A stretch of 64,000 bases of DNA, from NCBI RefSeq assembly GCF_002854065.1, contig NZ_CP024147.1; one strand, written 5' to 3'. Both the position numbers and the translations under genes were made by a program. The notes beneath the pieces were generated by a model that was given only the letters and a program-made list of their open reading frames with translations, did no database searches and had not been told where the DNA came from. This DNA comes from Escherichia coli (GTDB lineage: Bacteria; Pseudomonadota; Gammaproteobacteria; Enterobacterales; Enterobacteriaceae). Positions 3,144-51,117 of the stretch are shown here, in pieces (the first letter of the stretch is position 1; the number at the start of each line of letters is the position of its first letter).

Positions 3144-3473
3144 TTAACTCTCGTCCAGCACACTAAACATCCCGTTCCGCATCCCCTTAACCACCTGTTT
3201 AACCTGATAAAGTTCCTCCCGCAGCTCCTGCACCTCGTCACTGTCAGCGATAATGGTCAGGCACCCCTCCGAAATCTTCACCGTGACACCCCGCCCGGTA
3301 TCAAATCCGGCCTCTTTCAGCCAGTCGCCCTTAAGGTTCAGGCAGGGGTGTCGTGAGTAGTACGTGGTCATGTAGGTTTTGCTGTTTATGTGGCGGGCTC
3401 TGACATAGCCGACTTTATAGCGGCGCTGTGTTTTGGAAATGGTGACTTCTGGCGTAATATCGTGTTCAGCCAT
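3144..3473 (-). CDS. SymE-like type I toxin (AbrB-fold endoribonuclease family)
   Basis: 109-aa ORF; segment LKGDWLKEAGFDTGRGVTVKISEGCLTIIAD aligns with the SymE core ([31 protein letters not shown]) as I remember it. Confidence 0.7.
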   Translation of the reverse strand: MAEHDITPEVTISKTQRRYKVGYVRARHINSKTYMTTYYSRHPCLNLKGDWLKEAGFDTGRGVTVKISEGCLTIIADSDEVQELREELYQVKQVVKGMRNGMFSVLDES

Positions 3474-5526: not shown

Positions 5527-7340
<1,814 letters not shown>

Positions 7341-23009: not shown

Positions 23010-23150
23010 TAGGCCTGATAAGACGCGCAAGCGTCGCATCAGGCAACCAGTGCCGGATGCGGCGTGAACGCCTTATCCGGCCTACAAGTCATTACCCGTA
23101 GGCCTGATAAGCGCAGCGCATCAGGCGTAACAAAGAAATGCAGGAAATCT
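23010..23150. repeat. REP/BIME elements between sdhB and sucA
   Basis: Repeated gtaggcctgataagacgcg…cgcatcaggc and gccggatgcggcgtgaacgccttatccggcctac units. Confidence 0.8.
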
Positions 23151-27344: not shown

Positions 27345-27545
27345 TAAGTTTCACCTGCACTGTAGACCGGATAAGACATTATCGCCTTCTCCGGCAATTG
27401 AAGCCTGATGCGACGCTGAACGCGTCTTATCAGGCCTACGGGAAGCACCGATGTAGGTCGGATAAGGCGCTCGCGCCGCATCCGACAAGCGATGCCAGAT
27501 GCGACGCTTGCGCGTCTTATCAGGCCTACGGGTGACCGACAATAC
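27345..27545. repeat. REP/BIME elements between sucB and sucC
   Basis: Multiple copies of the gcctgatgcgacgc / gtaggcctgataagacgcg palindromic unit. Confidence 0.8.
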
Positions 27546-30316: not shown

Positions 30317-30418
30317 ATGCGAGGGAAAATACCTAAAACGGAACTGCTGGTGACTTTTGAGGTCGTCGCACGTCATGAAAGTTATACCAGAGCGGCAGAG
30401 GAGTTAGCGTTAACCCGG
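30317..30418 (+). pseudogene. LysR-type transcriptional regulator, N-terminal 34 codons only, truncated by IS1
   Basis: MRGKIPKTELLVTFEVVARHESYTRAAEELALTR resembles the LysR winged-HTH start; the reading frame runs into the IS1 terminus and stops on IS1 sequence. Confidence 0.6.
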
Positions 30419-30431
30419 TAATGACTCCAAC

Positions 30432-30935
30432 TTATTGATAGTGTTTTATGTTCAGATAATGCCCGATGACTTTGTCATGCAGCTCCACCGATTTTGAGAA
30501 CGACAGCGACTTCCGTCCCAGCCGTGCCAGGTGCTGCCTCAGATTCAGGTTATGCCGCTCAATTCGCTGCGTATATCGCTTGCTGATTACGTGCAGCTTT
30601 CCCTTCAGGCGGGATTCATACAGCGGCCAGCCATCCGTCATCCATATCACCACGTCAAAGGGTGACAGCAGGCTCATAAGACGCCCCAGCGTCGCCATAG
30701 TGCGTTCACCGAATACGTGCGCAACAACCGTCTTCCGGAGCCTGTCATACGCGTAAAACAGCCAGCGCTGGCGCGATTTAGCCCCGACGTATCCCCACTG
30801 TTCGTCCATTTCCGCGCAGACGATGACGTCACTGCCCGGCTGTATGCGCGAGGTTACCGACTGCGGCCTGAGTTTTTTAAATGGCGGAAAATCGTGTTGA
30901 GGCCAACGCCCATAATGCGGGCGGTTGCCCGGCAT
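30432..30935 (-). CDS. insB: IS1 InsB (C-terminal transposase domain, expressed as InsAB' by -1 frameshift)
   Basis: 167-aa ORF …[47 protein letters not shown]… matches IS1 InsB. Confidence 0.95.
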
Positions 30936-31129
30936 CCAACGCCATTCATGGCCATATCAATGATTTTCTGGTGCGTACCGGGTTGAGAAGCGGTGTAAGT
31001 GAACTGCAGTTGCCATGTTTTACGGCAGTGAGAGCAGAGATAGCGCTGATGTCCGGCAGTGCTTTTGCCGTTACGCACCACCCCGTCAGTAGCTGAACAG
31101 GAGGGACAGCTGATAGAAACAGAAGCCAC
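30854..31129 (-). CDS. insA: IS1 InsA (transposition inhibitor / N-terminal part of the InsAB' transposase)
   Basis: 91-aa [46 protein letters not shown]… matches IS1 InsA. Confidence 0.95.
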
Positions 31130-31184
31130 TGGAGCACCTCAAAAACACCATCATACACTAAATCAGTAAGTTGGCAGCATCACC

Positions 31185-31655
31185 CACCACGATTTGCAAA
31201 ATTTCATTGTGCGCCATGGCATCGACAATGCTGGTGGGGAAAGCATGCGAAATAAATACTTTTAGCGTAAAGGGTTCTGCCGCGACCACTCCGGTGGTTT
31301 CGGCACCGTGTGCAACAAAATTAATTCCTGTACCTGGCATGAAGAAATTTACCGTTATCAAGCCTAAGGCAATTGACAGCAATGAGGCGCAAATAAATAA
31401 AAAGAGTGTTTTAGAAAAAATACGACCAAGGGCTTTGGCATCGCCCATTTTAGCAATACCTACCACCAGGGTAGAGACCACTAACGGAGCGATAATCATT
31501 TTTATCAGTCGTAAGAAAATCGTCGTGAATATCGATATTTCTTGCGCATAGAGTTTTGCGGTTTCCGGTGAAGCAGTGTTATTGAGCACTACGCCGATAA
31601 TCATTCCAAGTACCAGCGCCAAAAGAATCATCGTGGTTAAACTTATTTTCTTCAT
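31185..31655 (-). pseudogene. Glutamate/dicarboxylate:cation symporter (DAACS family, GltP/DctA-like), N-terminal ~157 codons, 3'-truncated by IS1
   Basis: IFLRLIKMIIAPLVVSTLVVGIAKMGDAKALGRIFSKTL… aligns with the GltP N-terminal region; GGAGG RBS before ATG at 31655; the ORF continues into IS1, where it terminates. Confidence 0.8.
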
Positions 31656-31815
31656 TTTTTCCTCCATCAGGTGCACGGCGATAAATCAGAATCAGGAGAA
31701 GTAGATGCCTGAATAGAGATTCAGGCATCTACCTGCTATTACAACCTTACAAATAGCTGAAGTGTTGAACTGCAATAAGTGACGGGATGTCAGTTGGCTA
31801 AAAGTATTCGGATTT

Positions 31816-32133
31816 TTACAAATCGAAACTCATATTTAATAAAGGTGCATGTTGCTGTGCACCATAGACATCATTGTCACCTACATTCCCGGAGATAATA
31901 TCTCGTGGCATGACGATTTTTACTGCGTTAGAAGGATCAAACCAGACAATACGATGAATAAAGTCAGGTTCAACATGATATAAGCGCGCAATCAGTTCTG
32001 GGGTTAATTGCCCTGATGATTTAACTCGCTCATAGTTTTCTTTCGTTTTAAATAAAATATCTAAAACCAGTTCGTAAGGTCCGGCATTTTTCGAACGAAT
32101 GACTTGCGCCAGTGAGACAATTGACTGTTTCAT
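31816..32133 (-). CDS. DUF4387-family protein (105 aa), function unknown
   Basis: Small ORF translationally coupled (ATGA overlap) to the upstream DUF1446 gene; family assignment is from memory of the AtuA-partner family. Confidence 0.6.
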   Translation of the reverse strand: MKQSIVSLAQVIRSKNAGPYELVLDILFKTKENYERVKSSGQLTPELIARLYHVEPDFIHRIVWFDPSNAVKIVMPRDIISGNVGDNDVYGAQQHAPLLNMSFDL

Positions 32134-33500
32134 GCCTGAACTCCTTCTGGCGTCACCTGTTCAATATGGAAATCAAAACGCAGAGCGTCGTTGGCTTCAA
32201 TCAGGTGATATATGGAAAATTCGTATACCGGCCCGCCCTGGATATCAGAAGGGGAGAACGGGAACGCCAGGTTGCCTGCGGTAGCGATGCGGTTTTCATA
32301 GCCGTAGTGCAGCATGGTAGAGCGCACCAGCGAGCAAACGCTATTGGCAATTTCCTGGGTCGGTGCAACTACATCAAGGACAATCCCCAGCTCATGCCCG
32401 GCAGTTTGCATCGGTTCATGGTCGCCCATCACCCCGTTTTTACCGTACAGGTGGAAAATGATGCGAATGCTGTCATCGTCTAACGACAGGTTACGCGAAA
32501 CGCTGGTTTTGACTTCATCGATGATTTTATCGATCCCGGCGATCATGATCGGGTCGCGCGTTCCGGCGATGGTCAGACAGCGGAAGCCCACCCGTCGCGC
32601 ACCTTCCAGTTTCAGGGCATACGGCGTTTCTTCATGCTTAGAACCGCTGACGTACACTTCGCCGTCATTGACTGCTTTAAATGTGCAGCCTTTCAGGTTC
32701 AACACGCCGCCAGGTCCTGGCAGGAAGTAGGGATCGGATTTCTCATACAGTGTGTGTGCAGCTGCTGACGTTTCGGTAAATTTACGCTTCGGATTAAATG
32801 TCTTCAGCGTAAAGCCGTTGTCATCAATGATGCCCATCGCACAGTCAGAGCCTGAGCCGGGCGTTGCGGCGATTGCTGCGCACTCAAGGATTTTCCCACA
32901 ATGCAGCGCCAGACCTTCATCAAAGCCTTGCATGATCGGTAGCGCAGCAAAGCAGGCCGGGTCGTAAGCGCGCCCACCCAGCACCACTTGCGCGCCTTCT
33001 TTCAGCGCCCGCTGGAAGGGTTCGATGCCCATTTGCGCGACGATATACGTACTTTCGTCAATCGCGTCGTGGGTTAACGGCGGGACAAAATCCAGCGCCG
33101 TGATTTTGCCGTTATCCAGCGCCTGGTGGACGATGGCTTTGTCAACGTCTGCCGGGATCAACGCCATCGAGAACGAGAGGTGCTCTTCCTGGGCAATCTC
33201 ATGAATTATTTCTCGGCACCACTCCAGGTGTGGTGCGGCACCAGAACCGCCAGCCGTTCCGATCACCACCGGTATATTATTTTGCACGCCTGCGGTGATC
33301 ATATAGCGCAGATCGCGCTTGACCCCTGCGCGATCGGTAAACGGTTTGCCTGCCCCGAGGTAGTGGGGGCCTGGATCGGAAGAGCCTGCATCAACGGCGA
33401 TCAGATCGGGCGATTCTGCCATCGCTTTACGGAAGCTCTCTTCCGGGAATCCATACCCGAGGATTGCCGTTGGCGATAAGACTTTAAAAGAACGAGCCAT
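32130..33500 (-). CDS. DUF1446 / AtuA-like protein (456 aa), function unknown
   Basis: ORF immediately downstream of the methylaspartase gene (3-nt gap); AtuA-like assignment from sequence recollection, not a search. Confidence 0.6.
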   Translation of the reverse strand: MARSFKVLSPTAILGYGFPEESFRKAMAESPDLIAVDAGSSDPGPHYLGAGKPFTDRAGVKRDLRYMITAGVQNNIPVVIGTAGGSGAAPHLEWCREIIHEIAQEEHLSFSMALIPADVDKAIVHQALDNGKITALDFVPPLTHDAIDESTYIVAQMGIEPFQRALKEGAQVVLGGRAYDPACFAALPIMQGFDEGLALHCGKILECAAIAATPGSGSDCAMGIIDDNGFTLKTFNPKRKFTETSAAAHTLYEKSDPYFLPGPGGVLNLKGCTFKAVNDGEVYVSGSKHEETPYALKLEGARRVGFRCLTIAGTRDPIMIAGIDKIIDEVKTSVSRNLSLDDDSIRIIFHLYGKNGVMGDHEPMQTAGHELGIVLDVVAPTQEIANSVCSLVRSTMLHYGYENRIATAGNLAFPFSPSDIQGGPVYEFSIYHLIEANDALRFDFHIEQVTPEGVQA

Positions 33501-33503
33501 TTG

Positions 33504-34745
33504 TTAATCCTTAGCCTGCAACAGCGCGATAGTACGATTCATTTCGTTGAAGACGATATCGAGGCCTTCGTCAAAACCCATCCCTGGTTTTACCAGCATA
33601 CGCATAGGGCGAGCGGCAAGGGCGACGTGGACACAGGTGCGGGCACTAACATCAGTTTCATTGCAGGTGCCGCCCTGGTACGCTTCCATGCTGTGGCTGT
33701 TGCAGTAAAGAACCGCATCGACGATGTTGTGAATACTTCCAAGATCCGGGGTTTTGATTTGCACCATGTGACAACTGGCGGCATCAGTGAAATCAACAAT
33801 ATCCTGGTAGGTGTTACACCATTCATCGGCCACAATTTTCACGCCGGAACCGAGGCGCGTCAGCTCTTTGGTAATCGCGGTCAGCAGGCGAATTTGGTCG
33901 GGCTTGTTACCGGCATCGACCGGCCCTTCAATGTAGAGCGGCAGGCCTTGCGCTTCTTTTTCCAGGCTGGCGATGTATTGCGCACAGCGAAGCGGATCCA
34001 TATCGAAGATCAGACCGATAGTGCCGTATACATCGATGTGCAGGGTAGGGTGGTAGCGTGCGCTGGTGCGCTTGCTCAGAATGCGATCCGACAGCCAGCG
34101 GACATATTCGCGCAGTTTTTCACCTTTAAAGCCCAGCTTCTCTTCGACGTTATTAATCAGCGCATGGGGCAGCACGTCGATGCCCTTAAGGATCATCTTA
34201 TCGACGGCGATATATCGATCGTCGCCGCTCTGGCCAAATAATGGAATGGATTCCGCCACGTGTGGCAACTGCCATTCATCACAGACCACTTCAGTTTTCA
34301 GACGGCCGGTTGCCAGCGCAGTAGCATCAAGCAGCGCCTGTGATAATCCGTAGCGCACGGCGGTATGCAGCAAGTTGCCGTCAATACGCAGTTTGTCGAA
34401 GAAACGGGCATTCGGCAGGAAAGCATCCACATCGCGGCCTACCAGTAATGGCTTGATATGGTCGTTGAGGAACGGAATAAAGTGCTCTGCGAGGAACAGT
34501 GGATCGCGACCACCTGCCCCGGAATACTGTACGGCAGCACAGTCACCTACAGCGACCGCGCCGTTTTCCAGAATCAACTGTACCGATACGCACTCCCCGG
34601 CCTGACGAACGGCGTTAAACCCCTGTGTTACCGGCTCCCCGGTATAAAAAAAGCCGTCATGACCCGCTCCGTTTTTTATCGCCTGCTGGTCATCGAAATA
34701 GAATGAGGAGTAGCCAGCGGTGAACAGAGCCTGTTTTATTTTCAT
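33504..34745 (-). CDS. mal: 3-methylaspartate ammonia-lyase (methylaspartase, enolase superfamily)
   Basis: 413-aa ORF; strong similarity to clostridial methylaspartase as I remember it (…FYFDDQ.AIK.GAGHDGF.YTG…CAAVQYSGAGGRDPLFLA…HMVQIKTPDLG…). Confidence 0.9.
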   Translation of the reverse strand: MKIKQALFTAGYSSFYFDDQQAIKNGAGHDGFFYTGEPVTQGFNAVRQAGECVSVQLILENGAVAVGDCAAVQYSGAGGRDPLFLAEHFIPFLNDHIKPLLVGRDVDAFLPNARFFDKLRIDGNLLHTAVRYGLSQALLDATALATGRLKTEVVCDEWQLPHVAESIPLFGQSGDDRYIAVDKMILKGIDVLPHALINNVEEKLGFKGEKLREYVRWLSDRILSKRTSARYHPTLHIDVYGTIGLIFDMDPLRCAQYIASLEKEAQGLPLYIEGPVDAGNKPDQIRLLTAITKELTRLGSGVKIVADEWCNTYQDIVDFTDAASCHMVQIKTPDLGSIHNIVDAVLYCNSHSMEAYQGGTCNETDVSARTCVHVALAARPMRMLVKPGMGFDEGLDIVFNEMNRTIALLQAKD

Positions 34746-36190
34746 TATGGTCTTTCTATTAATTTACTGTGGGATACAGCATTGATGTCATCTACAACCA
34801 TCTGGAATGTCGGTTGGCGTCCTTCAAAGCGTGCGCGTTCCGCGACGTAATCGTGGTGGAGGTCGAGAATATCTTTTGGCAATGGAACGGCTCCGGCTTC
34901 CAGTACGCGTATCGCGCCGGTGTTGTCACGGACCGGAAGAATATTGCCCGCGTTGCAGGCGGCTGGCGCAAACGGCACATCCAGTACGCCCGCTTCAAAT
35001 GCCAGCACCGTACCGCGCGCAATATCACCATTACCCAGTTCGAACACTTTATTCAGTACCGCGCGAACCTCGCTCTTAATCAGTTCAATTTCCAGTTCAA
35101 CCGCAGGGCACGGCGGGAATTTCTGCTCATTGACCATGTTGAGCATCTGGCGGGAGGCTTTCAGCCCCTGAATGTTGGCAGCGGCAGTCGGGATACCCCA
35201 GGCTTCGTGCGGACTTTTGGTGATGACTTTGGTGGCACCAGACATCCCCGCGACGGCTGCGCCCCAGGAGATAATAGCGAACGCTTTCGATTCGTCTTCC
35301 GGAAAGCCGCCCATCCACTGGTGAAACACGGTACTCAATTCATAGTCGGTATAGCCATAGCTCTGAAAGTATTCGTGTGCAAGTTCACGCAGAGACTGGA
35401 TCGCCGCAACATCCTGCGTCAGGCTGCCGACCTGGCCATAACCAACGGTGATAGATTTCACACCCTGTTCCAGTGCCAGCAAGCCTTCGATTATCGCGAT
35501 AGAGTGCGAGATAAACGGCGGGATCAGCGTACCCGTTAGTGGGCCAAACGGTTCGCGGTTGATGCGGATCCCGTGTTCTTCATACATCCCCATTAAACGG
35601 TCGCAGTACTGCCAGTCGCGGATCGATTTTTCCAGCGTTACGCGTTTGGCATACGGAATGTTGTAGGAAATGCCACCGCCTTCATAACTGGTAAAGCCGC
35701 TGGCCATTGAGATTTCAGCCAGCAGACGCGCATCTGGCGTGCCGTGGCGGATCTGTAGCGGTTTTTGCAGGGTTTCGGTGAGGCGACGGCAAGCTGCGAC
35801 ACCATGGTTAACTACCGGTAAACCGTTCAGTTTAGAGGTTCCGGCTTCGATGGATTTTTTAATCCCTACAGCCGCTTCTTCGTACCGATTCAGACGGGTA
35901 TATGCATCGATGGTGCTTGGCAGCAGATCGCACTCTTCTTGTAGTGTTTTCAGCAGTTCGATGTGTTCGTCCATCAGCGCCACACCTGCGCGCGGTTGGC
36001 TAAGGGTTTTACCTTCCTTGTCTGCTTTCAGCAGCGCAAGAGAGAAGCGTTTATGCTCAGGGATGGTTTGTTGGTATTTAACGCCATCTTCAAAGATTTC
36101 AACATCCTTGCCGGTTTCCCAGGTTTTCAGTACCTGTTGCCGCTCGGTCATGAATTCGTCATGGGTTAATTTCTTATTTCGAAGTTCCAT
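34745..36190 (-). CDS. glmE: Glutamate mutase E subunit (methylaspartate mutase epsilon chain)
   Basis: 481-aa ORF, 1-nt stop/start overlap with mal; size and position match GlmE/MutE. Confidence 0.85.
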   Translation of the reverse strand: MELRNKKLTHDEFMTERQQVLKTWETGKDVEIFEDGVKYQQTIPEHKRFSLALLKADKEGKTLSQPRAGVALMDEHIELLKTLQEECDLLPSTIDAYTRLNRYEEAAVGIKKSIEAGTSKLNGLPVVNHGVAACRRLTETLQKPLQIRHGTPDARLLAEISMASGFTSYEGGGISYNIPYAKRVTLEKSIRDWQYCDRLMGMYEEHGIRINREPFGPLTGTLIPPFISHSIAIIEGLLALEQGVKSITVGYGQVGSLTQDVAAIQSLRELAHEYFQSYGYTDYELSTVFHQWMGGFPEDESKAFAIISWGAAVAGMSGATKVITKSPHEAWGIPTAAANIQGLKASRQMLNMVNEQKFPPCPAVELEIELIKSEVRAVLNKVFELGNGDIARGTVLAFEAGVLDVPFAPAACNAGNILPVRDNTGAIRVLEAGAVPLPKDILDLHHDYVAERARFEGRQPTFQMVVDDINAVSHSKLIERP

Positions 36191-36208
36191 TGATTGCAGC
36201 CTTAATTG

Positions 36209-37597
36209 TTATAGGGTTAAGCATTGAATACTGGTGCGCGCGGCGGCCAGCGGATCGACTCTGGCGACGTTTGCCAGCAGTGGTAATAGCCCCCGGGAAT
36301 CGCGGTAATATTCAAATTCGGTCGGTAAGAGAATGCGTTTACCGTCGTCGTTTAACTCGCGGTATTTCAACCAGTGATGCATATCGAACTGACTGGCACG
36401 CGAGAGCCATCCGCCGGATCCGACGACTTTACGCACGGTTGTCAGGTCACGTCCCATCTGTAAATCGACATTGCCGACGCAGGTGCAGACCTCTTTTTTG
36501 GTGCCCGCATGTCTTTCGGTGGCATAACCCACACACAGTCCGGCCAGGACGGTATCGAAATATTTCTCTTCTGCATTTGCGGGTAAGTAGTCGGGATGAG
36601 CGACTAGATGACGGAGGTAATGATAAAAAGCGTCCAGCTGTGCGGGTTGCTGAGCAAAATTCACATTGACTAACTCTTTCGCACTTTCACCAACCACCAC
36701 TGCCGAGACGCGCATTCCCAGATCGCCTTCCACCGTCCGTTTTACGAAGGGTTCCGGTACGCCGTGTAAAACGGTGTCGGGCGAGAGCGTGTTGGCACAG
36801 GCGGAATAAACATCGGTGGTTGCGCCGCCCATGTCGATCAGCATGAACTCTTTCCAGCTGTGATCGACGTTACTGATTGCCTTGACCAGTTCAAAGACCG
36901 TCCATGGTGTCGGCATTGGTTCTTCGCCTGTTTTATCAACAATGACATCCAGCCCTTTCCCTTTAACGATGCGTTTAAGGAATATGTCGCAAATAGCCTG
37001 GCGTGCGGCTAAAGGGTTCGGATGGTCAAGATCGGGCAGAACATTGTCGACGATGGTCAGGTCTTTATGCCCGAGGATCTCCTGCACCTCGTCCTGAATA
37101 TCCCGGTTTCCGGCATAAATAATGGCGCAGTCGAGTTTGGATTCTGCCAGCACACGGGCGTTATTCAGTCCGTAGCTTTCTTCTCCGCCGTCGGTGCCGC
37201 CGGTGAACAAGAGAATATCGGGCTGCGTTTCTTCCAGTGCCTGGATATCACGGCGGTTCAGCTTGTAGGCGTAATATTGCGCAATTTTAGCACCCGCAGA
37301 GTGAGCGGTTACTTTCGCGGTTTCCAGGGTGATAGAAGGCACCAATCCCATTGCGGCAACCGCCAGCCCACCTTTGGCAGAGGAGGAATACTTCAATGCA
37401 ACCTCACCGCTGTTTAACAGGGGGAGGGCATTATCTACGTTTAACACCTGGTTCAGGCTGGAGAAAAACCCCTTCGCCAGATGATGGGTGGTGGTTGGGG
37501 TCAGTACGTGGTTAACCAACGTTAACGCGTCCCCCTCCCGGGTGAAGAGGGCTGCTTTGGTCCACGTCGATCCAATATCGACAGAGACGATTTGCAT
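36209..37597 (-). CDS. glmL: Glutamate mutase-associated protein GlmL/MutL (ASKHA-fold ATPase-like)
   Basis: 462-aa ORF between glmS and glmE, as in clostridial glutamate mutase operons. Confidence 0.8.
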   Translation of the reverse strand: MQIVSVDIGSTWTKAALFTREGDALTLVNHVLTPTTTHHLAKGFFSSLNQVLNVDNALPLLNSGEVALKYSSSAKGGLAVAAMGLVPSITLETAKVTAHSAGAKIAQYYAYKLNRRDIQALEETQPDILLFTGGTDGGEESYGLNNARVLAESKLDCAIIYAGNRDIQDEVQEILGHKDLTIVDNVLPDLDHPNPLAARQAICDIFLKRIVKGKGLDVIVDKTGEEPMPTPWTVFELVKAISNVDHSWKEFMLIDMGGATTDVYSACANTLSPDTVLHGVPEPFVKRTVEGDLGMRVSAVVVGESAKELVNVNFAQQPAQLDAFYHYLRHLVAHPDYLPANAEEKYFDTVLAGLCVGYATERHAGTKKEVCTCVGNVDLQMGRDLTTVRKVVGSGGWLSRASQFDMHHWLKYRELNDDGKRILLPTEFEYYRDSRGLLPLLANVARVDPLAAARTSIQCLTL

Positions 37598-38046
37598 CAG
37601 ATAGCCTCTTCAAGAATACGAGTATCAACGTCATGACGTTGGTTGATATCGTGGGCCATCAGCTGACAAACATCTTCTAAGTCATGACTTGGGGCAAAGA
37701 CGCGATCAAATCCCATCTCTTTGAATTTGGTTTCCACGTCAGCGAAGTCATGTTTTCCGACCACCAGGTTACCGCCCACATAGAGCAGGATGTCCCCCAG
37801 TCCACGCTCGATGCAGCGTTCGCGCATGCCCAGACAGTCGATATCGCCATGCCCATAGATAGAGGAGACGACAATCGCGTCAGCGCCAGTTTCAATGGCC
37901 GCATCAATATATTCGTCCTGGCTGACCATTACGCCCAGATTAATGACTCTGAAGTCGTGGTTGCTAAAAACGCGGTCCAGAACTTTATTGCCTACTGCAT
38001 GGCAGTCCGCGCCAATAACGCCAATCACAAGTGTTGCTTTCTTCAT
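37597..38046 (-). CDS. glmS: Glutamate mutase S subunit (B12-binding sigma chain)
   Basis: About 149 aa from [24 protein letters not shown]…; cobalamin-binding DxHxxG motif (ADCHAVG); TGATG overlap with glmL. Confidence 0.9.
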
Positions 38047-38592
38047 GGGTAATCCTTTGTAAGACAGAGAGTAAAATAAGTTACACACGTCGTATTTATG
38101 GCCGTTCATAACGGCACAGGTTTAATATCACAGGAGTGTCTTTATCTGACCGTAATGTTGCAATTGATCTATTTTCAAAATGTCTTTCGGGAAATGATTG
38201 TTTAAAGTGTGTTTTTAAATTCCCATGTTAATTCAGTATGTTATGTCAACTAATGTCATGAATGTTAAATTTTTAAAATTAACTTGATTTAATGTATTGA
38301 GATAATTGTGATCTACTTCTAATTTGCATTTTAGTGATATGGGTTTAGCCATGAGTAAATGCATTTCATAAAATTTAAGTCGAATTTCACTGCAATTCAT
38401 CTCTGCTTAATGTAAAAATAATGTTGAAAATAACAAATGGTTAATGATTCATGCGAATTATGACGTTAGTTAGCTCTTTTGATTTTTCGTAAAAAAGAGA
38501 GGTACATGAAGGTGCTACCAGTATGAGTAACGTTAATCAAAGGTTTTATTACGTCTGGCAATAACGCAGGCCATTTTCGCGACTGGGTGGAT

Positions 38593-39015
38593 TTAATCAG
38601 TATAATCCTCATACAATATTTCAGGATTAACTGAACCGTTAACCGGGTTTTGGTGTTGAAATTTAGAAATGGCGGAGTCAATCAATGAAGACAGTATCGA
38701 AAAAATAACTGTGTCAGAACTAATTTCAATTAATCCTTCTCGTTGTTGACCAAAAAAGATATTTATCTTGATTTCATTTGTACTACGGCAATCAATATGT
38801 AGTAATTTTTGATCGCTGAGATTTTCTGTTTCATAAATGTTTTTGGCGATAGTCGGATGTATTGATGCCAGACATCTGCTCAGATAAGCCAGATCCTTTA
38901 GGGAACACCCCGCTGAGTAGAGGATGTCAGAGAATTTTTGTGTGTCAACTGTTGTCTCTGAAGCGTATGTTGCATTGACAGGAAGGGTGTTGAAAGAGAT
39001 TTGAGATGGGATCAT
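38593..39015 (-). CDS. Hypothetical acidic protein (140 aa) in AT-rich segment
   Basis: ORF in a strongly AT-rich region; no recognisable motif. Confidence 0.5.
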   Translation of the reverse strand: MIPSQISFNTLPVNATYASETTVDTQKFSDILYSAGCSLKDLAYLSRCLASIHPTIAKNIYETENLSDQKLLHIDCRSTNEIKINIFFGQQREGLIEISSDTVIFSILSSLIDSAISKFQHQNPVNGSVNPEILYEDYTD

Positions 39016-39096
39016 TATTTAAATCTTTCCGTGAGTAATAAAAATTAATCCCCAGGCATTGTTTAACAATATTTGCCATAGGGGATATATAGAAAA

Positions 39097-40041
39097 TTAA
39101 AGTATTTTATTGGCTTCGGTTAACTGATCTATAACCAGTGCCAGATTGGTAAACATTTTGAAAAAGCGATACTGGCTCGGAATATCTCTTTCAAAGACGA
39201 AACATTCAAGGTCATTGTTTGAAAAATAAAGGACTAGTGTTGCTGATTCGTCAGGGAAAACATGGAAATGTATCTGGTTACCAGAAGGAGGATAGTCCAG
39301 AAGAAGGGTATCTTTGCCCGTCACATACCTGTTGTTGTCGTGGACGCTACGCTCACACTTCATCAGAGGTGTCAGGATACTCATGTATTCATCTGATGTT
39401 AATTTATTAAAATCATCATTCATTTTAAAGAAACGATAAAGTAACAGTACATCCTCTTGCGTAACCGGTTCGTTTGTTTTTAGAGGGAAATAAGCGGGAA
39501 CCAGAAGATGAGGTTCTAATCTATTTTGTTGAGCGCTATAACTGAATTTGAACATAAATTCCGGATCGCTCATCAATTGAGCGACATAATTATGCCTGGC
39601 TTCGAAAATTTTAATTTTTATCAGGTTAAATAAGTCTGTTTCGTCATCCTGTATTAAAAGACATTGGCCATAGCAGCCAGGCTTTTTTTCATTATAAGCA
39701 GAAACGGTTATTCTGTCAGAGGTGTCAACGTTATATTCAAAAGCCAGATAGTGACCTTCTTCATCGCGATTTGTTTCCAGGTTATTTAAATTCATCACAT
39801 GAAGTGTTTGCAATGCTGATTCAATGAGCTGTTGACTCTCTGAGGTAAATGTTTCGCGCTGCGTTGTATAAAGTGTATCAATTCCAACGACTATCCGATG
39901 TGGGTCAAGGATGGCGGCAATCATCTTTATTACCTGCACAGTCACGGGTGATGTCATTGATTCTTTATCTGTTTTTAGAGAATCATTAGATGGCCAACCT
40001 GAGAAGCGATTGACAGCCGAACCGATATTATCAGGACTCAT
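39097..40041 (-). CDS. Hypothetical protein (314 aa) in AT-rich segment
   Basis: ORF with Ser/Asn/Pro-rich N-terminus, no transmembrane segments, no recognisable catalytic motif; co-directional with the 140-aa ORF. Confidence 0.55.
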   Translation of the reverse strand: MSPDNIGSAVNRFSGWPSNDSLKTDKESMTSPVTVQVIKMIAAILDPHRIVVGIDTLYTTQRETFTSESQQLIESALQTLHVMNLNNLETNRDEEGHYLAFEYNVDTSDRITVSAYNEKKPGCYGQCLLIQDDETDLFNLIKIKIFEARHNYVAQLMSDPEFMFKFSYSAQQNRLEPHLLVPAYFPLKTNEPVTQEDVLLLYRFFKMNDDFNKLTSDEYMSILTPLMKCERSVHDNNRYVTGKDTLLLDYPPSGNQIHFHVFPDESATLVLYFSNNDLECFVFERDIPSQYRFFKMFTNLALVIDQLTEANKIL

Positions 40042-40547
40042 AGCAGCAACCTCATTGTAATCAAGCGAGGCGCTGAGCGTACTCGGCTATAGAAAAACTA
40101 ACTTGCAAAAATCGCTCATTTTTCATTTATCAGGCGAAAGTGGTCTCTGTACACTCAGAAACAATCACTCCCGCTAAGTCATACCTGTTTCATCGATACA
40201 TTTAAGTGATTATTACTAATGAAACAATAACATAACGGGCTTACGGTCGGTGCTCATAAAGGCAACAATCAATTAACTTTGATAAAAATATGTTATGTAA
40301 AATAGCAACAAATTGGCTACTCTAATCAATTGGTATTATAAAAAGTGGATAAGGCGGTTCTGTTAAATAAAATACTGGTTTTTTATCTATACCTTTTCAT
40401 TGTAATAATTGTGTTGCATAAATATTTCACAATAAATTAACAATAAAATCACCAATGATCTATGGTTTATACATAATTAACATATTTGGTTGGTTTTGAT
40501 ATAAATCAATTTTTAATTCTTGAAAAAAATCTGCAAAACACGATAAA

Positions 40548-40561
40548 TTGTCGTAGATCAA
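40548..40561. promoter_or_regulatory. Putative FNR/CRP-family site in the cydA upstream region
   Basis: ttgtcgtagatcaa matches TTGAT-N4-ATCAA with one mismatch; cydAB is known to be FNR/ArcA-regulated. Confidence 0.3.
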
Positions 40562-40846
40562 ATTGATGAGATCGTGACAATTTCGCTATAAATTGATCAC
40601 TGTCGAAAAATGCAAATTTGCTCAATAAAAACCTGTTTATTGTAAGGATTTTGCGGCGTAATATAATTACGGGATCAATTTGGTTTATTCATTAACATAT
40701 TTGTAACTTTTTTATCATTGTCTTTTCCTCTTTTGATGAAATGGCAACGATAGGGGCGAGCAAATAATTTTGTATTGGGGCATGCGTGTGACCCTTTCTA
40801 ACGGGGTTCACTCTCGGAGTCTTCATGCGATGAGCAAGGAGTCATG

Positions 40847-42415
40847 ATGTTAGATATAGTCGAACTGTCGCGCTTACAGTTTGCCTTGACCGCGATGTAC
40901 CACTTCCTTTTTGTGCCACTGACGCTCGGTATGGCGTTCCTGCTGGCCATTATGGAAACGGTCTACGTCCTTTCCGGCAAACAGATTTATAAAGATATGA
41001 CCAAGTTCTGGGGCAAGTTGTTTGGTATCAACTTCGCTCTGGGTGTGGCTACCGGTCTGACCATGGAGTTCCAGTTCGGGACTAACTGGTCTTACTATTC
41101 CCACTATGTAGGGGATATCTTCGGTGCGCCGCTGGCAATCGAAGGTCTGATGGCCTTCTTCCTCGAATCCACCTTTGTAGGTCTGTTCTTCTTCGGTTGG
41201 GATCGTCTGGGTAAAGTTCAGCATATGTGTGTCACCTGGCTGGTGGCGCTCGGTTCAAACCTGTCCGCGCTGTGGATTCTGGTTGCAAACGGCTGGATGC
41301 AAAACCCAATCGCGTCCGATTTCAACTTTGAAACTATGCGTATGGAGATGGTGAGCTTCTCCGAGCTGGTGCTTAACCCGGTTGCTCAGGTGAAATTCGT
41401 TCACACTGTAGCGTCTGGTTATGTGACTGGCGCGATGTTCATCCTCGGTATCAGCGCATGGTATATGCTGAAAGGTCGTGACTTCGCCTTCGCTAAACGC
41501 TCCTTTGCTATCGCTGCCAGCTTCGGTATGGCTGCCGTTCTGTCTGTTATTGTTCTGGGTGATGAATCCGGCTACGAAATGGGCGACGTGCAGAAAACCA
41601 AACTGGCTGCTATTGAAGCTGAGTGGGAAACGCAACCTGCGCCTGCTGCCTTTACTCTGTTCGGCATTCCTGATCAGGAAGAGGAGACGAACAAATTTGC
41701 GATCCAGATCCCTTACGCGCTGGGCATCATTGCAACGCGTTCCGTGGATACTCCAGTTATCGGCCTGAAAGAACTGATGGTGCAGCATGAAGAACGCATT
41801 CGTAACGGGATGAAGGCGTACTCTCTGCTCGAGCAACTGCGTTCTGGTTCTACCGACCAGGCGGTTCGTGACCAGTTCAACAGCATGAAGAAAGACCTCG
41901 GTTACGGTCTGCTGCTGAAACGCTATACGCCAAACGTGGCTGATGCGACTGAAGCGCAGATTCAACAGGCAACCAAAGACTCCATTCCGCGTGTAGCGCC
42001 GCTGTACTTCGCGTTCCGTATCATGGTGGCGTGTGGCTTCCTGCTGCTGGCAATCATCGCGCTCTCTTTCTGGAGTGTCATCCGCAACCGCATTGGCGAG
42101 AAAAAATGGCTCCTGCGCGCCGCGCTGTACGGTATTCCGCTGCCGTGGATTGCTGTAGAAGCGGGCTGGTTCGTGGCTGAATATGGCCGCCAACCGTGGG
42201 CTATCGGTGAAGTGCTGCCGACAGCTGTGGCGAACTCGTCACTGACCGCAGGCGATCTCATCTTCTCAATGGTGCTGATTTGCGGCCTGTATACCCTGTT
42301 CCTGGTGGCAGAATTGTTCTTAATGTTCAAGTTTGCACGCCTCGGCCCAAGCAGCCTGAAAACCGGTCGCTATCACTTTGAGCAGTCTTCCACGACTACT
42401 CAGCCGGCACGCTAA
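40847..42415 (+). CDS. cydA: Cytochrome bd-I ubiquinol oxidase subunit I
   Basis: 522 aa from [28 protein letters not shown]. Confidence 0.97.
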
Positions 42416-45730: not shown

Positions 45731-47026
45731 GTGTCAAAGGCAACCGAACAAAACGACAAGCTCAAGCGGGCGATAATTATTTCAGCAGTGCTGCATGTCA
45801 TCTTATTTGCGGCGCTGATCTGGAGTTCGTTCGATGAGAATATAGAAGCTTCAGCTGGAGGCGGCGGTGGTTCGTCCATCGACGCTGTCATGGTTGATTC
45901 AGGTGCGGTAGTTGAGCAGTACAAACGCATGCAAAGCCAGGAATCAAGCGCGAAGCGTTCTGATGAGCAGCGCAAGATGAAGGAACAGCAGGCTGCTGAA
46001 GAACTGCGTGAGAAACAAGCGGCTGAACAGGAACGCCTGAAGCAACTTGAGAAAGAGCGGTTAGCTGCTCAGGAACAGAAAAAGCAGGCTGAAGAAGCCG
46101 CAAAACAGGCCGAGTTAAAGCAGAAGCAAGCGGAAGAGGCGGCAGCGAAAGCGGCGGCAGATGCTAAAGCGAAGGCCGAAGCGGATGCTAAAGCTGCGGA
46201 AGATGCAGCGAAGAAAGCGGCTGCAGATGCGAAGAAAAAAGCAGAAGCAGAAGCCGCCAAAGCCGCAGCCGAAGCGCAGAAAAAAACCGAGGCAGCAGCT
46301 GCGGCGCTGAAGAAGAAAGCGGAAGCGGCAGAAGCAGCTGCAGCTGAAGCAAGAAAGAAAGCGGCAACTGAAGCTGCTGAAAAAGCCAAGGCAGAAGCTG
46401 AGAAGAAAGCGGCTGCTGAAAAGGCTGCAGCTGATAAGAAAGCGGCAGCAGAGAAAGCTGCAGCCGACAAAAAAGCAGCAGAAAAAGCGGCTGCAGAAAA
46501 GGCAGCAGCTGATAAGAAAGCAGCGGCAGAAAAAGCCGCCGCAGACAAAAAAGCGGCAGCTGCAAAAGCAGCAGCTGCAAAAGCAGCAGCTGCAAAAGCA
46601 GCAGCTGAAAAAGCCGCTGCAGCAAAAGCTGCCGCAGAGGCAGATGATATTTTCGGTGAGCTAAGCTCTGGTAAGAATGCACCGAAAACGGGGGGAGGGG
46701 CGAAAGGGAACAATGCTTCGCCTGCCGGGAGTGGTAATACTAAAAACAATGGCGCATCAGGGGCCGATATCAATAACTATGCCGGGCAGATTAAATCTGC
46801 TATCGAAAGTAAGTTCTATGACGCATCGTCCTATGCAGGCAAAACCTGTACGCTGCGCATAAAACTGGCACCCGATGGTATGTTACTGGATATCAAACCT
46901 GAAGGTGGCGATCCCGCACTTTGTCAGGCTGCGTTGGCAGCAGCTAAACTTGCGAAGATCCCGAAACCACCAAGCCAGGCAGTATATGAAGTGTTCAAAA
47001 ACGCGCCATTGGACTTCAAACCGTAA
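45731..47026 (+). CDS. tolA: Tol-Pal system protein TolA (GTG start)
   Basis: 431-aa ORF; N-terminal anchor, long Ala/Lys/Glu-rich helical repeat domain, C-terminal domain. Confidence 0.95.
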   Translation: MSKATEQNDKLKRAIIISAVLHVILFAALIWSSFDENIEASAGGGGGSSIDAVMVDSGAVVEQYKRMQSQESSAKRSDEQRKMKEQQAAEELREKQAAEQERLKQLEKERLAAQEQKKQAEEAAKQAELKQKQAEEAAAKAAADAKAKAEADAKAAEDAAKKAAADAKKKAEAEAAKAAAEAQKKTEAAAAALKKKAEAAEAAAAEARKKAATEAAEKAKAEAEKKAAAEKAAADKKAAAEKAAADKKAAEKAAAEKAAADKKAAAEKAAADKKAAAAKAAAAKAAAAKAAAEKAAAAKAAAEADDIFGELSSGKNAPKTGGGAKGNNASPAGSGNTKNNGASGADINNYAGQIKSAIESKFYDASSYAGKTCTLRIKLAPDGMLLDIKPEGGDPALCQAALAAAKLAKIPKPPSQAVYEVFKNAPLDFKP

Positions 47027-48461: not shown

Positions 48462-49007
<546 letters not shown>

Positions 49008-49016
49008 GAGAATTGC

Positions 49017-49808
49017 ATGAGCAGTAACTTCAGACATCAACTATTGAGTCTGTCGTTACTGGTTGGTATAGCGGCCCCCTGGGCCGCTTTTGCTCAGGCA
49101 CCAATCAGTAGTGTCGGCTCAGGCTCGGTCGAAGACCGCGTCACTCAACTTGAGCGTATTTCTAATGCTCACAGCCAGCTTTTAACCCAACTCCAGCAAC
49201 AACTCTCTGATAATCAATCCGATATTGATTCCCTGCGTGGTCAGATTCAGGAAAATCAGTATCAACTGAATCAGGTCGTGGAGCGGCAAAAGCAGATCCT
49301 GTTGCAGATCGACAGCCTCAGCAGCGGTGGTGCAGCGGCGCAATCAACCAGCGGTGATCAAAGCGGTGCGGCGGCATCAACGACGCCGACAGCTGATGCT
49401 GGTACTGCGAATGCTGGCGCGCCGGTGAAAAGCGGTGATGCAAACACGGATTACAATGCAGCTATTGCGCTGGTGCAGGATAAATCCCGCCAGGATGACG
49501 CAATGGTGGCATTTCAGAATTTCATCAAAAATTACCCTGATTCAACTTACCTGCCAAACGCCAATTATTGGCTGGGTCAGTTAAACTACAACAAGGGTAA
49601 AAAAGATGATGCGGCGTACTATTTTGCTTCGGTAGTGAAAAACTATCCGAAGTCACCAAAGGCTGCAGATGCGATGTTTAAAGTCGGTGTCATCATGCAG
49701 GACAAAGGTGACACCGCAAAAGCGAAAGCCGTATACCAGCAGGTTATCAGTAAATACCCTGGTACTGATGGCGCTAAACAGGCACAAAAACGTCTGAACG
49801 CGATGTAA
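49017..49808 (+). CDS. cpoB: Cell division coordinator CpoB (YbgF; TPR protein)
   Basis: 263-aa ORF with signal peptide, coiled coil and TPR region; last gene of the tol-pal cluster. Confidence 0.95.
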   Translation: MSSNFRHQLLSLSLLVGIAAPWAAFAQAPISSVGSGSVEDRVTQLERISNAHSQLLTQLQQQLSDNQSDIDSLRGQIQENQYQLNQVVERQKQILLQIDSLSSGGAAAQSTSGDQSGAAASTTPTADAGTANAGAPVKSGDANTDYNAAIALVQDKSRQDDAMVAFQNFIKNYPDSTYLPNANYWLGQLNYNKGKKDDAAYYFASVVKNYPKSPKAADAMFKVGVIMQDKGDTAKAKAVYQQVISKYPGTDGAKQAQKRLNAM

Positions 49809-49972: not shown

Positions 49973-50048
49973 GGGTCGTTAGCTCAGTTGGTAGAGCAGT
50001 TGACTTTTAATCAATTGGTCGCAGGTTCGAATCCTGCACGACCCACCA
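49973..50048 (+). tRNA. lysT: tRNA-Lys (anticodon UUU)
   Basis: 76-nt GGGTCGTTAGCTCAGTTGGTAGAGC…CTTTTAATC…GGTTCGAATCCTGCACGACCCACCA. Confidence 0.97.
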
Positions 50049-50083
50049 CTAACCTAGTTAGTTGTAGTATCCAGCGTAGTATC

Positions 50084-50159
50084 GGGTGATTAGCTCAGCT
50101 GGGAGAGCACCTCCCTTACAAGGAGGGGGTCGGCGGTTCGATCCCGTCATCACCCACCA
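50084..50159 (+). tRNA. valT: tRNA-Val (anticodon UAC)
   Basis: 76-nt GGGTGATTAGCTCAGCTGGGAGAGC…CCTTACAAGG…GGTTCGATCCCGTCATCACCCACCA. Confidence 0.97.
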
Positions 50160-50161
50160 CC

Positions 50162-50237
50162 GGGTCGTTAGCTCAGTTGGTAGAGCAGTTGACTTTTAAT
50201 CAATTGGTCGCAGGTTCGAATCCTGCACGACCCACCA
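50162..50237 (+). tRNA. lysW: tRNA-Lys (anticodon UUU)
   Basis: Identical to the first tRNA-Lys copy. Confidence 0.97.
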
Positions 50238-50288
50238 CTAATTACGGTGGGTTCGGTGGAAGTAGTTTGTAGTATCCAGCGCAGTATC

Positions 50289-50364
50289 GGGTGATTAGCT
50301 CAGCTGGGAGAGCACCTCCCTTACAAGGAGGGGGTCGGCGGTTCGAACCCGTCATCACCCACCA
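50289..50364 (+). tRNA. valZ: tRNA-Val (anticodon UAC)
   Basis: As valT, with a T-arm variant (GGTTCGAACCC). Confidence 0.97.
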
Positions 50365-50367
50365 CTC

Positions 50368-50443
50368 GGGTCGTTAGCTCAGTTGGTAGAGCAGTTGACT
50401 TTTAATCAATTGGTCGCAGGTTCGAATCCTGCACGACCCACCA
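50368..50443 (+). tRNA. lysY: tRNA-Lys (anticodon UUU)
   Basis: Identical tRNA-Lys copy. Confidence 0.97.
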
Positions 50444-50589
50444 GTTTTAACATCAAACTCAGATGTTAAGCGTGAAGGATAACGTTGCGCCAGCAACGGC
50501 CCGTAGGGCGAGCGAAGCGAGTCATCCTGCACGACCCACCAATCTTAAAGATTGGCCCCGAGTAAAAATCTTTCAGGTAACACCCGTAT

Positions 50590-50665
50590 GGGTCGTTAGC
50601 TCAGTTGGTAGAGCAGTTGACTTTTAATCAATTGGTCGCAGGTTCGAATCCTGCACGACCCACCA
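50590..50665 (+). tRNA. lysZ: tRNA-Lys (anticodon UUU)
   Basis: Identical tRNA-Lys copy. Confidence 0.97.
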
Positions 50666-50698
50666 TCCTGAATGATTAAAGCAGCATAATCCCGCAAG

Positions 50699-50774
50699 GG
50701 GTCGTTAGCTCAGTTGGTAGAGCAGTTGACTTTTAATCAATTGGTCGCAGGTTCGAATCCTGCACGACCCACCA
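50699..50774 (+). tRNA. lysQ: tRNA-Lys (anticodon UUU)
   Basis: Identical tRNA-Lys copy, followed by a terminator. Confidence 0.97.
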
Positions 50775-50778
50775 ATGT

Positions 50779-50808
50779 AAAAAAGCGCCCTAAAGGCGCT
50801 TTTTTGCT
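50779..50808 (+). terminator. Rho-independent terminator of the tRNA operon
   Basis: aaaaaagcgccctaaaggcgcttttttgct; a second copy lies at 50935–50965. Confidence 0.8.
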
Positions 50809-51117
50809 ATCTGCGATACTCAAAGATTCGAACCTGCAGCAGGTTTGAGTTGAGCGTAGCGAAACAACGGAGCCGCTCGCGGCGACGGCCCGAAGGGCGA
50901 GCGAAGCGAGTCATCCTGCACGACCCACCAATGTAAAAAAGCGCCCTAAAGGCGCTTTTTTGCTATTCAGGCATCTCTCAATTTCAATTCTTGACCCTGA
51001 TGACATACTTCGCGCTTGCTGCGTAAACAACTTTACGTCGGAGGAATAAGACGCAAAGTGTGGCATTCGGCATCTCATACGTAATTCGAGTGACTTTTCC
51101 CCACCATTCGACTATCT

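Follow-up and report, generated by a model that had tools for sequence, protein, structure and literature searches.

A 15-unit allele of the tolA tandem-repeat tract in Escherichia coli, with one AAAAK unit in three adjacent copies

In Escherichia coli K-12 MG1655, the tolA gene contains a tract of 13 imperfect repeats, each 15 or 18 bp long, which Zhou, Michiels and Aertsen have termed a hypermutable contingency locus (2012, PLoS One; PMC3477136). According to an earlier survey, as cited in that paper, the tract varied from 8 to 16 units among 234 isolates, 66% of which carried 13 units (Zhou, Vanoirbeek, Aertsen and Michiels 2012, Res Microbiol 163:316). The effects of unit number are described for isogenic engineered alleles with 2, 6, 8, 13, 26 and 39 units (PMC3477136). 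Tolerance to deoxycholate increased with the number of units over four orders of magnitude, tolerance to 0.6 M NaCl at pH 5 was lower with 2, 26 or 39 units and equal to wild type with 6, 8 or 13, and fd phage plated on each non-13 variant at 28-43% of the wild-type level (PMC3477136). Expression matched the wild type in the 6- to 39-unit variants, and every variant, the 2-unit one among them, fully restored SDS tolerance and at least partly complemented a tolA deletion (PMC3477136).

The same work describes how the tract loses units. Contraction occurred at 6.9e-5; it fell to 15% of that value in recA, rose 3.3-fold in uvrD and was unaffected in mutS, and among 150 deoxycholate-selected colonies there were zero spontaneous expansions (PMC3477136). 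Units 12 and 13, which overlap the segment that binds YbgF (CpoB), never took part in laboratory contractions (PMC3477136). At the level of the protein, a structured domain II is required for full stabilisation of the outer membrane, and colicin import tolerates replacement of this domain, even by disordered or TonB-derived segments (PMC10666116). The length of domain II varies widely among Proteobacteria (PMC12204202).

Here, we analyse a 64,000-nucleotide stretch of E. coli chromosomal DNA (contig NZ_CP024147.1; hereafter, the window), whose tolA gene almost certainly carries this known in-frame VNTR, at the C-terminal end of TolA domain II, in the form of a 15-unit allele. The tract and its variability are already published, and what is new is a rare allele architecture that lies within the published range.

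Identity of the gene and extent of the tract

A preliminary description of this DNA had assigned an ORF of 431 aa to tolA, and this assignment is correct (Table 1). The protein scores above the cutoffs of two family models, the NCBIfam equivalog NF007065 (555.8 bits, cutoff 213) and TIGR02794 (308.5 bits, cutoff 59.45), and the gene shares 99.9% identity with tolA as annotated in strain 100416. It is located between tolR and tolB in the gene order ybgC-tolQ-tolR-tolA-tolB-pal-cpoB, according to the window's ORFs and the annotation of 100416 and K-12. The SHLS motif, whose definition and role are given in PMC10666116, is present at positions S18, H22, L29 and S33, and these positions are invariant across 10 alleles. 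Solved structures of domain III (1tol, 2x9a, 3qdp and 1s62) match residues 302-431, and the window protein also matches the K-12 TolA chains of cryo-EM entries 9k49 and 9ddm, which are full-length. With its frame kept and all of the defining features that we tested present, the window allele is an intact TolA.

Table 1. Coordinates of tolA, its domains and repeats, and the overlapping antisense ORFs in the window
Feature	Coordinates	Strand	Description and basis
tolA CDS	45731-47026	+	GTG start, 431 aa plus stop, 1296 bp; ORF list
TolA domain I, N-terminal membrane-anchor helix	45731-45832	+	AlphaFold2 helix, residues 3-34
TolA domain II, Ala/Lys/Glu/Asp-rich, predicted helical	45905-46642	+	Residues 59-304; AlphaFold2/DSSP, composition
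tolA tandem-repeat tract	46397-46633	+	237 bp, 15 units of 15 or 18 bp; primer bounds of Zhou et al., Tandem Repeats Finder, autocorrelation
Three adjacent AAAAK units	46553-46597	+	GCGGCAGCTGCAAAA / GCAGCAGCTGCAAAA / GCAGCAGCTGCAAAA; nucleotide and protein alignments
Last two units, AAAEK and AAAAK (K-12 units 12-13), with the two tract-closing Ala codons	46598-46633	+	Intact 3' of the expansion; alignments
TolA domain III (C-terminal domain)	46733-47017	+	Residues 335-429; Pfam PF06519, E = 2.1e-38, full profile 1-96
Spurious antisense ORF, Ala/Phe/Ser-rich	46069-46773	-	234 aa; ORF list
Spurious antisense ORF, Leu/Gln/Pro-rich	46188-46682	-	164 aa; ORF list

Within domain II, AlphaFold2 and DSSP place two helices, at residues 59-207 (pLDDT up to 91) and 226-304 (pLDDT 65-74), which are separated by a low-confidence break at residues 208-225. 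The pTM of the model is 0.27, so that the arrangement of the helices is unreliable and the model serves as support for secondary structure only. In that capacity, the model and the literature (PMC10666116, PMC12204202) together support the predicted helical nature of the repeat tract.

We delimited the tract by the primer sequences of Zhou et al. (PMC3477136), applied to each allele, with GCTGAGAAGAAAGCGGCTGC and GCAGAGGCAGATGAT as the sequence bounds for parsing units. Under equal primer bounds, the K-12 tract is 207 bp long and contains 13 units. Tandem Repeats Finder reports both a period-15 array (46406-46629, 14.3 copies, score 157) and a period-78 super-repeat (46401-46627, 2.9 copies, score 268). 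Across 46397-46633, the base identity at lag 15 is 0.734, compared to 0.503 +/- 0.033 in codon-permuted controls (z = 7.0), and the identity at lag 78 is 0.730 (z = 5.8 against the same type of control). When codons were shuffled only among synonyms, keeping the protein, the excess fell to z = 2.3 at lag 15 and z = 2.1 at lag 78. Therefore, the peptide repeat accounts for most of the periodicity of the DNA, and the DNA itself contributes a modest further signal.

The preliminary description had drawn the repeat array more widely, across 46100-46660, an interval that encodes TolA residues 124-310 (of the 190 residues from 124 to 313, 99 are Ala, 42 are Lys, 24 are Glu and 10 are Asp). The claim stands for 46397-46633, which is a true tandem array, but not for 46100-46396, which is rich in Ala, Lys and Glu but is not periodic at 15 bp (z = -1.6), with only weak short repeats according to Tandem Repeats Finder. 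Consequently, we regard 46100-46396 as low-complexity sequence and not as a tandem array, and we reject the reading of the whole 46100-46660 interval as such an array, since the 15-bp periodicity is lacking upstream of 46397. The two motifs that had been quoted as near-identical short repeats are both found in the window, aaagcggcagcagagaaagctgca from 46439 onward and gcagctgaaaaagc at 46601-46614.

The long antisense ORFs across tolA had been dismissed as spurious, and we agree. Both are of low complexity, a Pfam search with both ORFs returned no family (for the 234-aa ORF, none at E <= 0.1), the K-12 and 100416 annotations contain no antisense gene at tolA, and no Rfam family overlaps the tract; on these grounds, we reject them as real antisense genes. 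The antisense frames across 46100-46660 have only 1, 0 and 2 stops in about 187 codons, because GCN, AAR and GAR codons are being read backwards. Annotation pipelines should disregard such long antisense ORFs, which arise from Ala-codon bias, and should expect tolA lengths besides 421 aa.

Elsewhere in the window, the Rfam matches include the CpoB/ybgF thermometer between pal and cpoB, isrA, ES036, two naRNA4 elements (REP-derived), seven tRNAs (Lys and Val) and two RtT elements, with match positions at 48908-49046, 3274-3402, 5589-5631, 23012-23082, 27456-27526 and 49973-50930. All of these elements are expected for this region of the E. coli genome.

Origin of the additional units

We now turn to the comparison with K-12. 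The tolA gene of MG1655 (b0739) is 1266 bp long and encodes 421 aa, in line with the length given in the preliminary description. The window TolA aligns to the K-12 protein over its full length (E = 2.9e-222) and has a three-domain layout in common with it; it differs by 10 additional residues in domain II and by the substitutions E158D and A186T. In the nucleotide alignment, the two genes are separated by 18 SNPs and one 30-bp gap. This gap is an in-frame insertion that accounts for the whole length difference from K-12, and it consists of two added copies of the 15-bp sequence GCAGCAGCTGCAAAA, which encodes AAAAK. The resulting AAAAK triplet is directly followed by GCAGCAGCTGAAAAA (AAAEK), and K-12 has a single AAAAK at that place. 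Unit 11 of K-12 is therefore tripled in the window allele, giving 15 units versus 13, a number that falls inside the published 8-16 range, although the exact placement of the 30 extra bases is ambiguous within the repeat. Aligning with K-12 and counting units, as the preliminary description had proposed, thus yields two more in the window and not an identical number.

A further difference among alleles concerns an A-run at 46280-46287 (tolA codons 184-186), which grows by substitution from one allele to another. These codons read AAAAAAGCC (Lys-Lys-Ala) in K-12, AAAAAAACC (Lys-Lys-Thr) in the window and AAAAAAAAC (Lys-Lys-Asn) in 100416. Apart from this A-run, the tolA genes of the window and 100416 are identical, and the difference could be either a real mutation or a homopolymer-associated sequencing error.

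Judged from the alignments, the extra 30 bp represents two in-place duplications of a 15-bp segment, taken from the array's own sequence. Compared to the window, the tolA gene of XJ34 has 0 SNPs and a 30-bp gap, the gene of CUWW06 has 1 SNP and a 15-bp gap, and the gene of 100416 has 1 SNP and no gap, with the same three AAAAK copies. The gene of SMS-3-5 is 18 SNPs away, as is that of K-12 MG1655 with its 30-bp gap, and its own gap is 15 bp. A single tolA haplotype, with 0-1 SNP over about 1.27 kb, comes in versions with 1, 2 and 3 AAAAK units, and therefore the copy number changes faster than point substitution. The two-copy state is found both on this haplotype (CUWW06) and on a different one (SMS-3-5). 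The single unit of XJ34 starts with GCA, like copies 2 and 3 of the window, and copy 1 of the window and the K-12 unit start with GCG. From this, we infer that the K-12-like length of XJ34 is probably a secondary contraction.

The three-copy architecture was found only in 100416 among the best 60 of 5,426 genomes, and another three-copy allele on a typical E. coli haplotype would rank among those best 60. Strain 100416, a human stool isolate from the Gambia, is about 100% identical to the window across the ~23-kb stretch around tolA, and the whole window differs from it by 19 SNPs in 58.7 kb aligned. The independent assembly of this strain bears directly on whether the 30 bp could be an assembly or sequencing artefact over a real gene of K-12 length. 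Assemblers can miscount repeats, and some complete genomes carry apparent tolA errors (A1.S1.18 and NIPH17_0036), but 100416 shows an identical three-copy structure, the two-copy intermediate is present in CUWW06 and SMS-3-5, the reading frame is intact, and the 237-bp tract with its 30-bp insertion fits well within a single read. An artefact is thus extremely improbable, and we reject it because the same structure exists in an independent genome, together with its intermediates.

The same neighbours also decide against a second explanation, according to which the 431-aa allele did not expand locally but came in whole through homologous recombination with a divergent lineage or species. Outside the repeat, the window tolA is SNP-identical to that of XJ34 and 1 SNP from that of CUWW06, the surrounding 23 kb are 99.6% identical to XJ34, and the new units are exact copies of the sequence that flanks them. 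An import is very improbable on this evidence, even though E. coli core genes recombine often and tolA haplotypes differ by ~18 SNPs between lineages. We reject a foreign origin of the extra segment, since its flanks are SNP-identical to a 13-unit allele and its units copy local sequence. Transfer may have spread the allele, with the extra units themselves made locally.

For such local duplication, a likely route would be misalignment between neighbouring near-identical 15-mers, whether through slippage during replication or through unequal exchange that depends on RecA. We infer this mechanism for expansion, the laboratory observations being of contraction. The preliminary description had named slippage as the cause of length change; the change in copy number is borne out, but laboratory contraction proceeds mainly by RecA-dependent recombination and not by simple slippage (PMC3477136).

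Other differences between the window and the near-identical 100416 lie outside of tolA. In the window region 30413-32076, an IS1 copy (about 30413-31185) has the opposite orientation to the IS1 of 100416 and adjoins a ~4.0 kb deletion compared to that strain. Lost through this deletion are cobO, the gene for a class I fumarate hydratase, the 3' part of the gene for a dicarboxylate/amino-acid symporter and most of the gene for a LysR regulator. The window segment 31726-32076 (351 bp) is absent from 100416, at the place where 100416's own IS1 sits. Therefore, two very close strains differ by IS1-associated rearrangements.

An accessory island occupies about 30400-40900 of the window, between sucD and cydA, in place of K-12 mngR/mngAB. 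Its genes encode methylaspartate (glutamate) mutase (glmS, glmL and an E subunit), methylaspartate ammonia-lyase and an AtuA-family protein, and it contains two further hypothetical ORFs, one of them annotated in 100416 as a pseudogene with an internal stop. The 23-kb query is matched across at least 80% of its length in one place by 202 of 5,426 genomes, which suggests that the island is a minority feature.

Length variation across E. coli

A search of 5,426 complete E. coli genomes located tolA in 5,425 of them. We characterised its length distribution using two even-step samples of the ranked matches, comprising 98 distinct genomes, so that the following figures are matched lengths and not a full census. 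The K-12 length of 1266 bp was found in 65 of the 98 sampled genomes (66%), which agrees with the published 66% share of 13-unit tracts. The other lengths in the sample were 1185, 1188, 1215, 1221, 1251, 1254, 1260, 1275, 1281, 1290, 1296, 1299 and 1311 bp, and three further genes, of 1310, 1310 and 1142 bp, are apparent pseudogenes.

Eighteen tolA alleles were fetched, and the 15 intact ones were aligned first. In these, each length change is a multiple of 3 and is located inside the repeat-rich part of domain II, and domains I and III are essentially invariant. Across the 17 alleles finally aligned, all indels are in that part of domain II, and all except two are within the array or just before it. 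The tract is thus length-variable, as the preliminary description had anticipated, with sampled tolA genes from 1185 to 1311 bp. The aligned intact alleles encode 404-436 aa, and natural alleles encode 394-436 aa by matched length. A length of 431 aa is reached via at least three different rearrangements, in the window, OkiPb01697 and ST2747, and therefore length alone does not identify an allele.

Rearrangements also extend to the end of the array. In FDAARGOS_1285, the final AAAAK unit lacks 4 residues, and OkiPb01697 has a 10-residue AAAAKAAAEK duplication that involves the last units. These alleles show that the last array units (K-12 units 11-13) rearrange in the wild, contrary to the laboratory contractions, which spared units 12-13.

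Three sampled genes depart from an intact frame or from an intact length. The tolA genes of A1.S1.18 (1310 bp) and NIPH17_0036 (1142 bp) are annotated as pseudogenes, and that of TUM11356 (1310 bp) is taken to be one from its length. The frameshift in A1.S1.18 is a G6-to-G5 change at tolA nt 980, in the Gly-rich linker and outside of the array, and it is probably a sequencing error. The NIPH17_0036 gene has a frameshift with internal stops.

Possible consequences and comparison with known systems

An alpha-helix rises by 1.5 Å per residue. The 10 additional residues would accordingly lengthen the predicted helical domain II by ~1.5 nm, if it forms one continuous straight alpha-helix. Extrapolating from the 2- to 39-unit variants, a tract of 15 units may slightly shift the trade-off among tolerance to bile salts, tolerance to osmotic-acid stress and the entry of filamentous phage. 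By interpolation within the engineered series, the 15-unit allele may be marginally more bile-tolerant and a marginally worse co-receptor for filamentous phage; the series steps from 13 straight to 26 units, and the phenotype of 10 more residues may be nil. The broader proposal of the preliminary description, that repeat length can affect phage import, is supported by the reduced fd plating of the engineered non-13 variants (PMC3477136).

Whether such a shift matters to the cell depends on how tolerant the spacer is. There is a nearly even chance that the length difference is real and yet selectively neutral, the product of a high mutation rate in a tolerant spacer, with no measurable effect on the stability of the envelope or on the entry of phage or colicins. 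The wild-type expression of the 6- to 39-unit variants, the at least partial complementation and full SDS tolerance conferred by all of the variants, the import of colicins through disordered or TonB-derived domain II and the natural range of matched lengths are all in keeping with neutrality. However, two thirds of strains have exactly the 13-unit length although contraction occurs at around 1e-4 to 1e-5 per cell, which points to stabilising selection, and neutrality is also at odds with a deoxycholate tolerance that scales with the number of units over four orders of magnitude and with the poorer plating of fd on every non-13 variant. At the other extreme, the three perfect AAAAK units beside the reported CpoB/YbgF-binding segment may be a recent selected variant of a gut lineage, for example one with more bile-salt tolerance or less filamentous phage entry, but we consider this unlikely.

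In either case, the tolA tract illustrates, in textbook fashion, how an in-frame tandem repeat in bacteria tunes the length of a protein that spans the periplasm, and it is usable as a typing marker. Three known systems place it in context. As in phase-variable contingency loci, its repeats mutate much faster than point substitution. Unlike those loci, its units are in frame and generate a graded length, not an on/off switch, and mutS has no effect on the rate. We reject on/off phase variation for this tract, since its units are 15 or 18 bp long and intact alleles differ by multiples of 3.

The second system is domain II of TonB, a homologous periplasm-spanning force transducer whose length varies among species (PMC10666116, PMC12204202). 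Both proteins have a repetitive low-complexity spacer that connects an inner-membrane motor anchor to a C-terminal domain binding an outer-membrane target. The Glu-Pro/Lys-Pro repeats of TonB form a polyproline-II helix and not an alpha-helix, and they lack sequence similarity to TolA; the TonB model gave only a weak, sub-threshold match to the window TolA (15.8 bits, cutoff 265).

The third and closest system is the tolA repeat of Zhou et al. itself, which shares with the window the gene, the tract, the 15- or 18-bp units and the Lys/Ala-rich peptide. The difference is one of allele only: the window's extra units are unit 11 tripled, located just 5' of units 12-13.
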